Shown: positions 1-31,789 of the stretch, in pieces
Layout: each line of letters starts with the position of its first letter
How positions within the stretch are numbered: position 1 is the first letter of the stretch
DNA from: Thermoproteaceae archaeon
Lineage (GTDB): Archaea > Thermoproteota > Thermoprotei > Thermoproteales > Thermoproteaceae
NCBI GenBank assembly: GCA_020833025.1
Contig: JAJHRB010000004.1
Coordinates: 1-39,870, forward strand
Direction: 5' to 3'
DNA: 39,870 bases
Notes under the pieces: model-generated
Database searches by the model: none
What the model saw: only the letters and a program-made list of their open reading frames with translations
Told to the model about the DNA's origin: nothing
Program-made: the position numbers and the translations under genes

Positions 1-596
1 GCCGCTCTGTCCCGGCGAGTTGACGTAAACCGATATGCACGCCGTCCTCTCGCCGGTCCAGTCACCCGAATCTCGCAGATTCTCGGCGGCATTAACGCCA
101 GAATGCAGTACTGGCCGAAGCCGTAGATGTCAATGGACTGCACCCACCGCGCCGTGCCCTGCCACAGGGGCACGCCGACCGCCGTGAAATTCCCGGCCGG
201 CGTCCTGTTGACGTGCATGTGCGCCATCCGGCCCCGCCCGACGGAGCCCCAGCCCCACGCGCACTACCAGGACCCCTTCAATAGACACAGGCCCACTGCC
301 GCGTCGAAGTTCTGGAAGCCCCGCGCGCCGACATCTGCCGCAAGGACGGGCGTGCATCCTATGCAGAGGCGGAGTACTTCGGACAGCTGCAGTTTCACGA
401 TCTCGCCGGGAGGGGGGCGGCAGGAGGGCCGCGAGGCCGTAGTTGTATTGTCTGCTCCGTCGGGTGGCAGGCCAGCAGGAGCACTCCCGCGCGGCCCCGG
501 CGCAGGGTGGTAGGACGGCGCGCTGGCGCAATGAGCGTTGATGCGCAGATAGTGCCTAGTCTGGCGTTCACTTCTGCTTGCTCGCATGTAAAGCAA
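1..596 (-). pseudogene. Possible multiply frameshifted relic of a beta-rich/surface protein gene running off the left edge
   Basis: Protein-like segments appear in different minus frames (GPVSIEGVLVVRVG; HVNRTPAGNFTAVGVPLWQG..SIDIYGFGQY; GDWTGERTACISVYVNSPGQSG), separated by stops or frameshifts. No family recognised. Confidence 0.2.
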
Positions 597-683
597 GCTA
601 AGAGGCAGTGCAAGCTTGTTAGCATTGCGGTGAGCCGTCCGGCGCGCCGGGAGTTAAACAGCGCGGCAGGAAGGACAAGGGGC

Positions 684-780
684 TGGTAGCCCGGCCGGGA
701 TTCGAACCCGGGCCACGGGGTTTCTCCGCCGGCTCCCGGCCGACTCCAAAGCTGCGGGTCTCGGCAGACTCCCCGCATCC
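684..780 (-). tRNA. tRNA-Gln(UUG) 3' portion (nt 22 to ACCA) with two BHB introns (31/32 at 752-770; 37/38 at 722-745); no functional 5' exon in cis
   Basis: Minus strand: GGATGCGGGG [19-nt intron] CTTTGG [24-nt intron] ACCCCG TGGC CCGGG TTCGAAT CCCGG CCGGGCT ACCA. Intron 1 has H helix GCGG/CCGC and inner helix GTCT/AGAC. Intron 2 has CTTT/GGAG and GTCGGC/GCCGGC. The upstream 24 nt cannot form the acceptor stem. Confidence 0.85.
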
Positions 781-823
781 GTGGCCGGGTCGGTCTGGGC
801 GGCTGTGTCGCAGGTATTCTACG

Positions 824-830
824 TTTTTAA
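824..830 (-). promoter_or_regulatory. TATA box of the tRNA-Gln fragment
   Basis: TTAAAAA preceded by an A-rich BRE-like stretch (GAAAAC), 26 nt before A804, where the GC-rich leader begins. Confidence 0.6.
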
Positions 831-1040
831 GTTTTCAAGTGTAGTTACTGCATCTGGCTAGGGTGAGTTTAGGCGTCACCGAGTTCTTGGTTGATTCTCC
901 TCCCTGAACTGGCCCGCCCTGCGTACTCTGCACCTGTCTGCTTGGCATATCTGTCCGGCGTCGGCACACTAGCGCTAGAAACAGGCCGGCGGGCAATCCA
1001 GCTCCCAGATGGCCGAATTGGCTTTCTCGACGTCTAATAG

Positions 1041-1847
1041 CTATATCTCGAAGACGGCGCCGGCTCCCCTCACCTCGGCCGCTCCGGGCAAAGCCGCATG
1101 TAACGCGGCTATCCCGGACACGCCGGTGCAGTGAGTGCCTACGATCAGGCCGGGGCCCTTGGCCTTGAGGTACTCCGCGACTTCCCTCACTCTGGCCTCG
1201 GACAACCCTATGAAGTGAAGCCCGCCGATAATTGCGTGGAGTCTGTCGGCGCCTGCTACCTTCAAGCCGTATTCTACTATGTTCTCCACTCCGGCGTGGC
1301 CGCAGCCGGTGAGGGCGACGAGCCCCTCGGGGTGCCTTATGTAGAGAGCCATGTCGTCGGGCACAAGATCCAAGGCGGCTCCGGTGTGCGAAGGCCCCCA
1401 GCTCCTCGGTATCTCGCCCGAGGCCCATACGCCTTCGGCGATCTCGTAGGGCTTCCTCACCAGGACCAGCTTCACGCCTTTGGACTCAAGAAAGTCGCGG
1501 GTGAAGTCCACCCCTATCTCCACCTCCCCCACCTCGAACCTGGCGTAGGCCTTTGCGAAGAGATTCTCGTGGGCCACGACTGTCAGCGGCCTGGACCTTG
1601 CGTCGAGAAGTTTCTTGACCCCCCCGGTGTGGTCTATATGTCTGTGGCTGAGCACCAAGACGTCGGGATCGTCGGGAGATATGCCGAGAGCCCTCATGTT
1701 GTTGAGCAGGGCAGTTCCCGAGAGCCCGGTGTCGTAGAGTATTTTCCAGTCGTAGACGTAGGCCGAGAAGCCCCATTCGCCTAGGAGCTTCAGCCTGAGG
1801 GAGGAGGGCTGGGTTAGGTAGTTGTCCACCAGTATCGCTACTCTCAC
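1041..1847 (-). CDS. MBL-fold metallo-hydrolase, COG1237/MJ0301-like (often annotated as a pterin-pathway synthase)
   Basis: Motifs DNY, EWGFS, LYDTG, LSHRHIDHTGG, TGCGHAG, IGGLH, HCTG. GTG start at 1847 follows an AT-rich TATA-like box. Confidence 0.85.
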   Translation of the reverse strand: MRVAILVDNYLTQPSSLRLKLLGEWGFSAYVYDWKILYDTGLSGTALLNNMRALGISPDDPDVLVLSHRHIDHTGGVKKLLDARSRPLTVVAHENLFAKAYARFEVGEVEIGVDFTRDFLESKGVKLVLVRKPYEIAEGVWASGEIPRSWGPSHTGAALDLVPDDMALYIRHPEGLVALTGCGHAGVENIVEYGLKVAGADRLHAIIGGLHFIGLSEARVREVAEYLKAKGPGLIVGTHCTGVSGIAALHAALPGAAEVRGAGAVFEI

Positions 1848-1867: not shown

Positions 1868-2240
1868 TTATGTAAATTTGCAGCCGATCTCCACATGGGC
1901 CTTCGCCGCGGCGAGCTCCACTGCCCTGCGGTCGGCCTCCAGCCACCGCGCCAGCCTGTCGGCCGGCGCAGGGTCGACGCAATAGCCGGCCCTCTGGAGC
2001 TCTCTCATCAGCCGGTGCACCTTGTCCCTCTTAGCCTGCGCTGCCACCGCGGCCTCCTCAAGGGACAAGCCGGCGAACTTCACGGCGAGCACGCTCTACT
2101 ATCTTGCTGAGCCTGTACGGAGCCCCCGCCGTGGGGCCCCTCAGCTCTATCCGGTAACGCCTGCCGTCAGGCACGCCTATCTCGGCGGCTATACGCGCCG
2201 TGGCGCCCCTGTAGATCCGCTCCTTGTTCACAACGCCGCG
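1868..2240 (-). pseudogene. Possible frameshifted small-gene relic (weakly PIN/VapC-like)
   Basis: Two minus-strand ORF pieces (..RIAAEIGVPDGRRYRIELRGPTAGAPYRLSKIVE / VLAVKFAGLSLEEAAVAAQAKRDK..) join with a 1-nt shift near 2093. The family guess is weak. Confidence 0.2.
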
Positions 2241-2540
2241 CGGCGGGGAGGGCGCCGGCCGTGCGCCCAGACGGAGTTCCTCGTTGCATCCGGCGGGGCC
2301 CATGGCGGCCGGCAGGCGCGGGTGAGGCAGGCCTGGAGGCCCAGCCCGCCGGCAGGAGCGCCTACAGCTGCTGACAGGTACCGCCGGCGGGAGAACGCAA
2401 TGAGTACATTGACTCTATGGCGATGCCCTCAGCTCCTAAATGCACCGCCAGCTCGCCGCTTTGACACTCACGCCGGGCCGCCCGGCGCGTTCGTAGGTCG
2501 CGCCGCAGGCGGCTTAAAAAGCGGGCCGGCGGCAGGTCTG

Positions 2541-3299
2541 GTGTACGTGATAGTGCTGTCGCTGGGAGACCCTGTCTCGCGCGCGTTCCTCAAGCTGGCA
2601 CAGCCCATGCCCCTCCTCAAGACTGTCGGCGAGATCGAGATTCGGAGGCTCGGCGAGCACCGCGTAGTGATTCACAGGGGGGAGCCAACGGAGTTCGGCG
2701 CGGAGGACCTGCTCGTCTCTCTCGGCGCGCACGCGGTCTTTATCTCGAGGCACGAGATGACAAACCCAAGGCCCATGCTGACGGTTCACGCGCCGGGCCC
2801 CTGGCCTGACGTCTCAGTCTCGAACCCGCGCCTCGCGACGGCAATCTTCAGGGCGCTCTGCAAGCTCGCGCCCGAGCCGTTCGCGTGCGCTTTCGAGGCG
2901 ACGCACCACCCGCCGAGCACGTCCAGCGTCTCTGCCACATTCGTGGAGGTGGGGAGCACGGAGAGGGAGTGGGGCGATAGGAGGGCCGTGGAGGCGCTGA
3001 TGTGCGCAGTGAGCGAGGCGCTGGGGAGAGAGCGGGGAGGCGGCGTGCCGACAATGGTAATAGGCGACCTCCACTACTCCACCGCAGCCAGCGATGCACT
3101 GAGGGGGGAGATCGACATCGGGCACGTCGTGCCGAGATATGCGAGCGTGACGGCGGAGGACGTCCTACGCGCGCGCGAGAAGCACACAGAGAGCGTGAAA
3201 CGCGCTGTGGTGTTCCGCAAGGGCGTTAGAAACCCGCTTAGGGCCGAGGTGGTCCGGCTGCTTAAGGAGCGCGGCGTTGAGGTCACCCTACGGGGATGA
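2541..3299 (+). CDS. dtdA: D-aminoacyl-tRNA deacylase (archaeal DTD2)
   Basis: Motifs FISRH, LTVH, FEATHH, FVEVGS. GTG start about 25 nt after TTAAAAA (2514-2520). Confidence 0.9.
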   Translation: MYVIVLSLGDPVSRAFLKLAQPMPLLKTVGEIEIRRLGEHRVVIHRGEPTEFGAEDLLVSLGAHAVFISRHEMTNPRPMLTVHAPGPWPDVSVSNPRLATAIFRALCKLAPEPFACAFEATHHPPSTSSVSATFVEVGSTEREWGDRRAVEALMCAVSEALGRERGGGVPTMVIGDLHYSTAASDALRGEIDIGHVVPRYASVTAEDVLRAREKHTESVKRAVVFRKGVRNPLRAEVVRLLKERGVEVTLRG

Positions 3300-12242: not shown

Positions 12243-13517
12243 CTAGCGGCCCGGCCTCCGTCTTGAGGGCGGGGGCGGCGGCGTCTTTCCGGGCTCTTGC
12301 GGCTTTGCGGCCGGCGGGGGCGGCGCCCTGGCCCTCGCCGCCGGCTGCGGGGCTCTGGGCGGCGGCTTGGCGTAGAGAGTCTTCACCTCCTGAATGCGCT
12401 TCAGGAGCTCCTCCTTCAGTCTCGGCGCTATGAAGTTCCCCGTGAACGCGTCTGCCTTTGCCGCTATAGCCAGCTTCGCTGCGAGGGCTCTCGCTATCTT
12501 GCCCCTCTGCCATCTGGGCGACCTGAAGATCTCCGGGTACTGGAATATCACGCCGTGCTTAGGCGGCTTGCTGCCAGTGCGCAGTGCTCTGAATAGCGCC
12601 TTCTCGGCGCCGAGCACCTGTATCGTGGACGCCGGCAGGAACGCCAGTCTCATGAGGCCGCCAGCCAGCTTTACCAGTCTCGCGCCCAGCAGCGGGCCGA
12701 CGAGCTCTCTTACGTTCGGCGCGACCTCCCTCATGGCCTCGTCAATGTAGCCGGCGAGGGCCTCTCTGAACTCCTCCAGCTTGACGAACACGTCGGCGTA
12801 GGTCTTAATCTGCTCGAGGTCCCACTCTGTCATCTCCGCGCCCACGCTCTTCGCTGCAGCCTCCGCTATCTTCCTCGCTCTCTCTTCCTGAATGTCGGGG
12901 ATGGCCCTCTTCAAGCTCTCCTGCGTTATCTTGGATCTGTGGCCAATGAAGTACACCACTCTCACGTATTCCCTGTTGTCCTTGGCGAGCTCCTCGAGCT
13001 CAGGAAAGTGAAGCCCGTACCACTCTCTAATTCTCGACGCGATTAAATTCATTATCTTGTCCACGTCGTCAAGCGCGCTGATTGCCTGCGCTACGTAAAG
13101 GTCTCTCTTCTCAACAGCCTGCCTGAGCTTGCGCCTCGTGACCAGCTCGCTCACGTCGAGCAGGAACTTCCTGTACTCGCCCCACTCCATGCCGAGCTGC
13201 TGCAGGTACTCGGCGAACCTCTGCCTGAACGCCACGACGGCCCTGCACGGGCTTTCCGCGTGCACCTCCACGCCCTTGACAGCTAGGACGAGCTTGCGGG
13301 CAAGCTCGGGATCCTCGACTACTACTCTCTCGGCCCTCTGTTTCAGTCTCTCGATGAGATTCAGAAGCTCTGGCACGGGATTTGACTTCTCCAGCTCTAT
13401 CACCCTGCTCGCTACCAGCTCGAGATCCCGCTCGTACAGCTCCTTGTCAACTAGATTTCCTGACTCGTCTAGGGCGAAGAAGCCTAGCACATCAGTCGCA
13501 ATATAGATTCTAGTCAT
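12243..13517 (-). CDS. nop5: C/D-box methylation guide RNP protein Nop5 (Nop56/58)
   Basis: RIREWYGLHFPEL, APNVRELVGPLLGARL, PASTIQVLGAEKALF, PPKHGVIFQ, RGKIARALAAK. Confidence 0.97.
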   Translation of the reverse strand: MTRIYIATDVLGFFALDESGNLVDKELYERDLELVASRVIELEKSNPVPELLNLIERLKQRAERVVVEDPELARKLVLAVKGVEVHAESPCRAVVAFRQRFAEYLQQLGMEWGEYRKFLLDVSELVTRRKLRQAVEKRDLYVAQAISALDDVDKIMNLIASRIREWYGLHFPELEELAKDNREYVRVVYFIGHRSKITQESLKRAIPDIQEERARKIAEAAAKSVGAEMTEWDLEQIKTYADVFVKLEEFREALAGYIDEAMREVAPNVRELVGPLLGARLVKLAGGLMRLAFLPASTIQVLGAEKALFRALRTGSKPPKHGVIFQYPEIFRSPRWQRGKIARALAAKLAIAAKADAFTGNFIAPRLKEELLKRIQEVKTLYAKPPPRAPQPAARARAPPPPAAKPQEPGKTPPPPPSRRRPGR

Positions 13518-16004: not shown

Positions 16005-16121
16005 TGGTGCCCCGGCCGGGATTTGAACCCGGGTCACGGGCTCGAAAGGCCCGCCTGAGGGCGGGAGCCCGCTATCCTTGGCCGGGCTAGACTACCGGCT
16101 GGAGTGGCGGCCGGCCACGGC
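16005..16121 (-). tRNA. tRNA-Glu(UUC) with introns at 3/4 (16099-16118) and 25/26 (16055-16073), CCA encoded
   Basis: Spliced: GCCCCGG TA GTCT AGCCCGGCCAA GGAT G CGGGC CT TTC GA GCCCG TGAC CCGGG TTCAAAT CCCGG CCGGGGC ACCA. The 3/4 intron forms a full BHB (CCG/CGG, GGAG/CTCC, TGGC/GCCA). The 25/26 intron has a relaxed motif. TTTATT at 16160-16165. Confidence 0.93.
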
Positions 16122-16177
16122 TCCCGGCGCGCCGGGGCTGGGCTATCTCGGGCCGGAGCAATAAACTTTTCCGCGCC

Positions 16178-30994: not shown

Positions 30995-31789
30995 TCACCA
31001 CTCCTGAAGGTCGGCCAGCGTTCCCAGGAATGTCATGTCGGGTAGGTACACCTCCGCGAGCTCGTGTCTCCACTCAACGTACTTGAGAATAGACTTTCCC
31101 TCTAGCGACGCGCGCGGCAGCTCTCTCACGTCGACTCCCGCCAGCAGCGGGTGGAACGCGGGGAGCACGATAATCTTGACCACGCCGTCCTCGCACGGAT
31201 CGCCGTAGAGACTCTCGCAAAGCGCCCTCCGCTGGGCGTGAATTTTGAGCAGCGCTGGCACCTTTACGTAATACCCTATGTCGTCTCTTATCATCACTGC
31301 AGGGTGCGTGTGCCCCATTATTACTACGCCCGCTCTCTCCAAGTCCTCCCTGCGCGGCTTTGCGTGCCCGTGGAGCAGCAGGTATTTATCGTCGAGCAGA
31401 ATCCCGCGGGCCGGCGCGGTAATGACTCCCTCTATGCCTTCGGCTATCTCGCGCAGCAGCGTGTCGTGATTTCCTGGAGTCAGCAGCACCGGAACTCTCC
31501 TGGCCACTGCCGACAGGAACGCCCTGACCTCGCCCGCGCTGTCCCTAGGCGAGCGAAGCTCGTGCTTGACATCGCCGAGAATGACGACGAGAGTCGCATT
31601 GAGGGAGTCGGCAAGCTCTACCACCCTCCTTGCAATTCTCTCCGTCTGGCTCGCCACGTTCACTCCCCGCTCTCTCTTGAGCTCTAGCTCCAGCCCGATG
31701 TGCGTGTCTGCGATGAGGAGCGCGCGCCCGCGCTTTAGGCGCAAGACCGCCTCGTACTGCAAGTCAAGACACACGCTGCCTGCGCACAA
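30995..31789 (-). CDS. Metallophosphoesterase (COG1407/ICC-like)
   Basis: IADTHIG, LGDVKH, PGNHD, LHGH, MGHTHP, LPAFHP. Confidence 0.92.
   Translation of the reverse strand: MCAGSVCLDLQYEAVLRLKRGRALLIADTHIGLELELKRERGVNVASQTERIARRVVELADSLNATLVVILGDVKHELRSPRDSAGEVRAFLSAVARRVPVLLTPGNHDTLLREIAEGIEGVITAPARGILLDDKYLLLHGHAKPRREDLERAGVVIMGHTHPAVMIRDDIGYYVKVPALLKIHAQRRALCESLYGDPCEDGVVKIIVLPAFHPLLAGVDVRELPRASLEGKSILKYVEWRHELAEVYLPDMTFLGTLADLQEW

Follow-up and report, generated by a model that had tools for sequence, protein, structure and literature searches.

On the minus strand of the window, by which we mean the whole stretch of 39,870 nucleotides analysed here, positions 836-684 very probably hold one of two genes that jointly encode tRNA-Gln(UUG), the two transcripts being joined by trans-splicing; this reading is built on sequence comparison and folding. 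Read directly, the strand presents in order a TATA box, a leader and the exons for tRNA positions 22-76, the latter interrupted by two cis introns at 31/32 and 37/38 (Table 1). Positions 1-21 were found on another contig of the same genome, followed by a trailer that matches the leader. A sequence-only reading of the window had described just such a promoter-driven 3' piece of tRNA-Gln(UUG), with the break at 21/22 and two cis introns, and the sequence together with the partner gene bears it out.

Table 1. Features of the proposed split tRNA genes, in the window and elsewhere in genome G000 (C numbers are contigs; the window contig is C19).
Feature	Location	Strand	Basis
Putative promoter: purine-rich BRE-like bases, then TATA box TTAAAAA (830-824)	window 824-836	-	direct reading; activity putative
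Leader, 24 nt, GC-rich	window 781-804	-	direct reading; pairing with 5'-piece trailer; homology to cis 21/22 intron
Exon, tRNA positions 22-31 (G22-G31): D-stem 3' strand, position 26, anticodon-stem 5' strand	window 771-780	-	
Cis intron 1, 19 nt, at 31/32	window 752-770	-	BHB, checked by hand
Exon, positions 32-37 (C32-G37), including anticodon TTG	window 746-751	-	
Cis intron 2, 24 nt, at canonical 37/38	window 722-745	-	BHB
Exon, positions 38-76: anticodon-stem 3' strand, 4-nt variable loop, T arm, acceptor 3' strand, A73, encoded CCA	window 684-721	-	
Pyrimidine-rich tract directly past CCA; possible termination region	window 666-683	-	direct reading; inference
5' piece of Gln(UUG): exon positions 1-21, 28-nt trailer, hairpin	C28 from 34809	-	genome search
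Gln(CUG) 5' piece	C14:10839-10920	+	own TATA box
Gln(CUG) 3' piece	C89, about 398-493	+	own TATA box, 27-nt leader, one canonical intron
Leu 3' piece	C89:48541	+	
Leu 3' piece	C102:3207	+	
Leu 3' piece	C89:53522	-	
Leu 3' piece	C34:22761	+	
Asn-like pair, first piece	C20:13302	-	13-nt complement
Asn-like pair, second piece	C74:5760-5845	+	13-nt complement
Thr-like pair, first piece	C34:9003	+	10-nt complement
Thr-like pair, second piece	C88, about 12860-12970	+	10-nt complement

The leader can be divided by its pairing partners: nucleotides 804-791 pair with the trailer of the 5' piece over 14 bp, a CCC triplet (789-787) pairs with a GGG in that trailer, the GGCC at 786-783 supplies the central BHB helix with its 3' strand, and AC at 782-781 makes up the 3' bulge of the BHB together with G22. 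Both cis introns keep their own BHB when folded by hand, with a central helix of 4 bp flanked by two bulges of 3 nt. The inner stem has 4 bp and a tetraloop in intron 1 and 6 bp in intron 2, where the central helix is the anticodon-intron helix. In this genome the gap from TATA box to +1 is 21-23 nt in the intact tRNA genes and in both Gln 5' pieces, which places the predicted start of the window gene at about 804-800; the TATA boxes of the UUG pieces stand 19-23 nt ahead of the leader or of +1, like those of the intact tRNA genes. Tracts like the pyrimidine-rich one past the CCA also trail other tRNA pieces of the genome.

No tRNA was called in cis at this locus by ARAGORN or Rfam, relaxed thresholds included (at the relaxed threshold Rfam returned just chance-level matches in 500-1100), which fits the absence of positions 1-21. 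Scanning for a T arm plus acceptor strand recovered the 3' end in the window and no acceptor 5' strand match up to 450 nt upstream of it; nor does the rest of the window hold a 5' exon with a D arm, in agreement with the earlier claim that no cloverleaf can form in cis and that the gene is not permuted. The genes nearest to the tRNA piece encode a metallo-beta-lactamase-fold protein (1041-1982, same strand, just upstream) and a D-aminoacyl-tRNA deacylase-domain protein (2022-3299, plus strand), and there is no integrase near the piece. Farther along, the minus strand of the window carries at 16008-16140 a multi-intron tRNA, probably Glu(UUC) (Rfam 31 bits; identity not assigned by ARAGORN), whose acceptor 5' strand is seemingly interrupted after about position 3 and which has an extra intron just before the anticodon loop.

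The genome, G000, is a metagenome bin of 126 contigs and 1.56 Mb (62.6% G+C, 94% complete, 0% contaminated) in which a Gln 5' exon with a D arm is present twice, on C28 and on C14. The first of these is the separate 5'-piece gene that had been predicted from the window: its exon matches the expected pattern exactly, and its TATA box lies 23 nt upstream, a spacing shared with the intact tRNA genes of the genome. Its trailer closes with 14 bases that are perfectly complementary to the 14 bases opening the leader. This 14-mer has two occurrences in the 1.56 Mb, namely the C28 trailer and the reverse complement of the leader itself, where 0.058 would be expected for the whole genome and about 1e-6 for the 60 nt past a given 5' exon; the leader-trailer duplex reaches -42 kcal/mol, compared with -25 ± 3.7 kcal/mol for shuffled trailers. 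The predicted trailer was thus found in part: 14 of its 18 bases are present, after which the actual trailer diverges into a 10-nt internal loop, and a search with the reverse complement of the full leader found only the leader itself. When the four exon segments are joined by script, ARAGORN calls a 76-nt tRNA-Gln(ttg) with a normal cloverleaf, identical to an intact, intron-free Gln gene (locus L012) of a same-genus genome. Gln-specific exon words are limited to C19 and C89 (3' bodies) and to C14 and C28 (5' exons), and the 94%-complete assembly contains neither an intact Gln gene nor a further Gln(UUG) exon.

At the proposed junction the 5' exon ends in GGCC-AA and the leader in GGCC-AC, followed by G22. 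The two GGCC tetramers pair to give the 4-bp central helix of a BHB at 21/22 with bulges of 3 nt each (AA plus the first trailer base; AC plus G22), so that the A21 and G22 junctions sit in the bulges; beyond them come the helix between trailer GGG and leader CCC, a 10-nt/1-nt internal loop and the 14-bp helix. This geometry equals that of the cis introns that relatives carry at 21/22. Cofolds of the full-length UUG pieces, at 37 and 90 °C, all keep the trans acceptor stem, the 14-bp helix and the hairpin that follows the trailer. In the minimum the first bases of the trailer pair with exon positions ~41-49 instead of entering the BHB, whose form is less favourable by 9.5 kcal/mol at 37 °C and by 5.5 kcal/mol at 90 °C and appears only under constraint. 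Truncated constructs of the second Gln pair described below, Gln(CUG), come near the BHB without constraint: the central helix and the AA bulge form, and the 3' bulge is 1 nt and not 3. We do not count the competing pairing against function because relatives with a cis intron have the same competition, the complementarity between the start of the 21/22 intron and exon positions ~41-49 being conserved and open to their genes as well.

Maturation would begin with transcription of the window gene from its own TATA box, yielding the 24-nt leader and then positions 22-76 with the two introns, and the C28 gene would supply positions 1-21 followed by the 28-nt trailer and the hairpin. The two RNAs would anneal through the 14-bp helix, the short helices GGG:CCC (3 bp) and GGCC:GGCC (4 bp), and the D and acceptor stems, which would set A21 and G22 in the two 3-nt bulges of the BHB. 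A heterotetrameric splicing endonuclease could then cut both trans bulges as well as the two cis BHBs, and RtcB would ligate the exons into the 76-nt tRNA-Gln(UUG). Genes for such a machinery are present: EndA alpha, the catalytic subunit, is encoded on C61 (PF01974, 100 bits), RtcB on C60 (501 bits), and a candidate EndA beta of 122 aa on C29 matches PDB chain 2zyz_A (PAE0789; E 2.4e-44), which we take to be the structural subunit of the Pyrobaculum aerophilum endonuclease. The RtcB match falls in two parts within a single 961-aa open frame (C60:4614-7331, plus strand), suggesting an intein or another insertion in the ligase gene.

The second Gln isoacceptor follows the same design: as judged from its pieces, tRNA-Gln(CUG) is split like Gln(UUG), at 21/22, with a leader-trailer helix of 11 bp. 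Cognate duplexes of the two pairs reach -42.0 and -42.3 kcal/mol and crossed ones -37.2 and -31.6 kcal/mol, an advantage of 5-10 kcal/mol for the cognate partners. The 5' exons on C14 and C28 differ at one D-loop base, so crossed joining would still yield usable tRNAs. Directly after both trailers stands a GC hairpin (C28:34759-34731, minus strand; C14:10890-10916, plus strand), whose 3' arm plus CT reads like an acceptor 3' strand, a pattern that occurs only three times in the genome. The idea that this hairpin is a decayed T arm and acceptor strand received weak support (shuffle fractions of 0.025 and 0.23) and was set aside.

Could the window stretch be a dead fragment, an att-site duplicate or a decaying pseudogene, with an unassembled intact gene doing the UUG decoding? 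The assembly is short of complete, and att-like partial tRNA-Ser 3' copies next to helix-turn-helix genes do exist in this genome. We nevertheless hold this to be very improbable, because those Ser relics are preceded by AT-rich sequence and have close by an intact parent gene, which the window piece lacks, and because the window piece has a correctly spaced TATA box, two cis introns whose BHBs are intact, exons with the sequence of functional orthologues, a unique partner with a 14-nt complement and a CUG counterpart built in the same way. An intact Gln(UUG) gene elsewhere, coupled with the lack of a 5' partner, had been put forward beforehand as the sign of a pseudogene or att relic; what the assembly holds is the reverse, a partner and no intact gene. 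The partial Ser copies themselves lie at C12:11340-11396 (plus strand), C17:72-130 (minus strand) and C78:4326-4381 (minus strand), each with an adjoining helix-turn-helix gene and AT-rich upstream sequence; C12 and C17 each also carry an intact Ser gene at a distance of about 10 kb, and on C78, which is 4.4 kb long, no such gene was seen. These copies resemble att-site duplicates left by integrated elements more than they do split genes.

Slimmer still is the chance that both pieces belong to one transcript, as a very long intron or a circularly permuted gene. The contig ends are open, and same-strand continuation from C19 into C28, or from C14 into C89, could be imagined, yet no contig-end overlaps link C14 to C89 or C19 to C28 in either direction. 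For UUG the sole order that a single transcript would allow puts the 3' piece first, at least 2.6 kb ahead of the 5' piece. No match occurs along the 34.8 kb that follow the 5' piece or along the 39 kb of window contig that precede the 3' piece, and both pieces have a TATA box of their own, spaced as in tRNA genes. Circular permutation was considered separately and rejected, as nothing resembling a 5' exon lies within 683 nt downstream of the CCA and none with a D arm occurs in the window.

We also aligned the Logan contigs of four DNA runs from two studies with window 500-1100. Those of run X1, the likely source sample, cover 692-1100 with zero differences, those of X2, from the other study, cover 698-881 with zero differences, and those of X3 cover 698-1100 and show five differences, all outside the leader, one of them (735) in the apical loop of intron 2; the contigs break only at T-arm words common to many tRNAs. 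Misassembly at 781-804, which the sequence-only reading had raised against itself, is ruled out by these contigs from two studies. An assembly artefact more broadly, whether a chimeric join at 781-804 or a bin that mixes organisms, is the least credible alternative: the genome is indeed a 126-contig metagenome bin and the read-derived contigs do break at shared T-arm words, but those of X1, X2 and X3 span promoter, leader and body with the leader unchanged in all three, and a chimera would not create a unique 14-nt complement beside the correct exon on another contig. This check applies to the 3' piece in the window, the 5' piece on C28 coming from the bin assembly alone; the RNA runs found share only ~4% of the sampled sequence words with the stretch.

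How the two-gene arrangement arose can be followed in the relatives, which we take to be cultured Pyrobaculum and Thermoproteus species. Both Gln genes could be examined in 23 of 24 other genomes of the family, the 24th (61% complete) giving no match, and most Gln genes from the same genus (g1) and the sister genus (g3) carry a cis intron exactly at 21/22 that shares the central helix, the bulges and the GGG...CCC stem with the split pieces. Scans of metagenomes and of species-representative contigs revealed the closest counterpart, in Thermoproteus sp. CP80 and similar hot-spring contigs, where the Gln genes hold a 50/51-nt cis intron at 21/22 whose first ~30 nt align with the trailer and whose last ~30 nt align with the leader, in the same order. 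The inner hairpin stem of this intron is the leader-trailer helix, and the break falls at the 5-nt loop of the hairpin. In CP80 three cis introns, at 21/22, 31/32 and 37/38, interrupt the Gln(CUG) gene (L091), giving the architecture of the window gene in unsplit form, and CP80-type Gln(CUG) genes carry, at the same position, a 19-nt intron homologous to intron 1 of the window. The split gene would thus have arisen by breakage of a cis 21/22 intron at the loop of its inner hairpin, and the direction from intron to split can be read from the sequences because the unsplit state is kept in close relatives and its hairpin matches the helix.

This origin also alters how the leader is understood. 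It had been proposed that the whole leader may be a diverged 5' exon, a view not supported in that form: its last ~10 nt are homologous to the 3' end of the relatives' cis 21/22 intron, and its middle matches the 3' strand of the inner hairpin of that intron. Its first four bases, AGCC, at the usual distance of +1 from the TATA box, could still be an exon relic. Relative to the CP80-type intron, the stem shows two compensatory pair changes (T-A in place of C-G in the UUG pair, C-G in place of T-A in the CUG pair), which may predate the split. Both Gln 5' pieces share a hairpin that no cis intron has, and this hints that the pieces were copied after the split, in which case the compensatory changes would be later than it. 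The leader is absent from the 28 other family genomes searched with up to 3 mismatches allowed, and a metagenome scan for leader plus exon gave no match. One further Gln 5' exon of the same genus, L043 (G013:C81, minus strand, 5' exon at 31513), is followed by a GC-rich trailer, a hairpin and T-runs; no 3' exon lies within 200 nt of it and no partner was found in the 98%-complete G013 by exon words, 3'-end word or trailer complement, so L043 is only a candidate for a split-gene piece.

Among known split tRNAs, Chan, Cozen and Lowe list those of Nanoarchaeum, Caldivirga, Staphylothermus, Aeropyrum and Thermosphaera, with six as the highest count per genome and none in five sequenced Pyrobaculum species (PMC3218864). 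The sole split Gln in their table is that of N. equitans, the same Gln(UUG), likewise made from two transcripts joined at a BHB with a heterotetrameric endonuclease; it differs in its 32/33 junction in the anticodon loop, in having no extra cis introns and in belonging to an unrelated lineage with a reduced genome (Table 1 of PMC3218864), and its origin is independent of the present one. The split tRNA-Lys(CUU) of Staphylothermus and tRNA-Asp(GUC) of Aeropyrum and Thermosphaera resemble our case in the perfect trans pairing beside the BHB (13 nt there, reported for Staphylothermus among them, and 14 here); a base change that keeps a trans pair was taken as a sign of selection and the splits were read as late, and the differences lie in the order (Desulfurococcales), in the junctions (30/31 and 37/38) and in the single split tRNA per genome (PMC3218864). 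Caldivirga maquilingensis, as outlined in a review (Fujishima et al., 2009, via PMC4390854), is likewise a free-living member of the Thermoproteales whose tRNA pieces have separate promoters, pair by leader and trailer and form a BHB where they join; its intervening sequences are homologous to cis introns found at the same position in relatives, and some of its isoacceptor pairs have a piece in common. In that account its split tRNAs are Gly, Glu and Ala; here the tRNA, the family and the genus are others, the junction is in the D loop at 21/22, and the 3' piece keeps two cis introns. A resemblance of the intervening sequences of split tRNAs to cis introns of related species is also described in general terms by Kanai (PMC4390854).

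Also close are the cis-spliced Gln genes of Pyrobaculum and Thermoproteus, such as L091 of CP80, which share the exons, the interruption sites, the central helix, the bulges and a homologous stem with the split pair. There the 50-nt intron is continuous within a single gene, whereas the split pair has the cut at the hairpin loop, a helix lengthened to 14 bp and halves that sit on separate contigs with separate promoters. A D-loop junction at 21/22 is absent from the junctions tabulated in PMC3218864 and in the 2015 review (PMC4390854), and no report of the present split Gln was found in the literature covered, which is incomplete. New here are the pair of isoacceptors concerned, the place of the junction, the lineage and the co-occurrence with two cis introns; the rules are otherwise those of known split tRNAs.

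The genome holds many other promoter-driven tRNA pieces. When 9 candidate 5' pieces were compared with 12 candidate 3' pieces in a matrix of their longest complementary runs, the background was 5-10 nt and the matched pairs stood out at 14 and 11 nt (the two Gln), 13 nt (Asn), 10-11 nt (Leu) and 10 nt (Thr). The Leu 5' piece, promoter-driven at C89:44350 (plus strand), has a trailer complementary over 10-11 nt to the leaders of four Leu 3' pieces (anticodons UAG, GAG, CAG and CAA; Table 1), so that one 5' piece would serve several isoacceptors; an intact Leu gene is also present at C100:10812 (minus strand). A 12-nt match between the C14 trailer and the Leu(CAA) leader was dismissed as within chance for GC-rich repeats. 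Further candidate pieces, so far unpaired, lie on C31, C81, C13, C91 and C100 and at C74:17519. On balance, we lean towards the view that this hot-spring genome of the Pyrobaculum lineage holds the most fragmented tRNA gene set known, above the published six.

Split tRNA genes are rare and central to the debate over whether tRNA halves are ancestral or derived. The present split Gln occurs in a genus reported to be without split tRNAs (PMC3218864), and the two cis introns in its 3' piece would bring trans- and cis-splicing together on one precursor. A break inside an ordinary intron of related species bears on how split tRNA genes arise. If our reading is correct, the Gln genes would be a dated case in which an intron became a split gene and compensatory changes were retained between strands now at different loci, and would give direct support to a late, intron-derived origin of split tRNAs.
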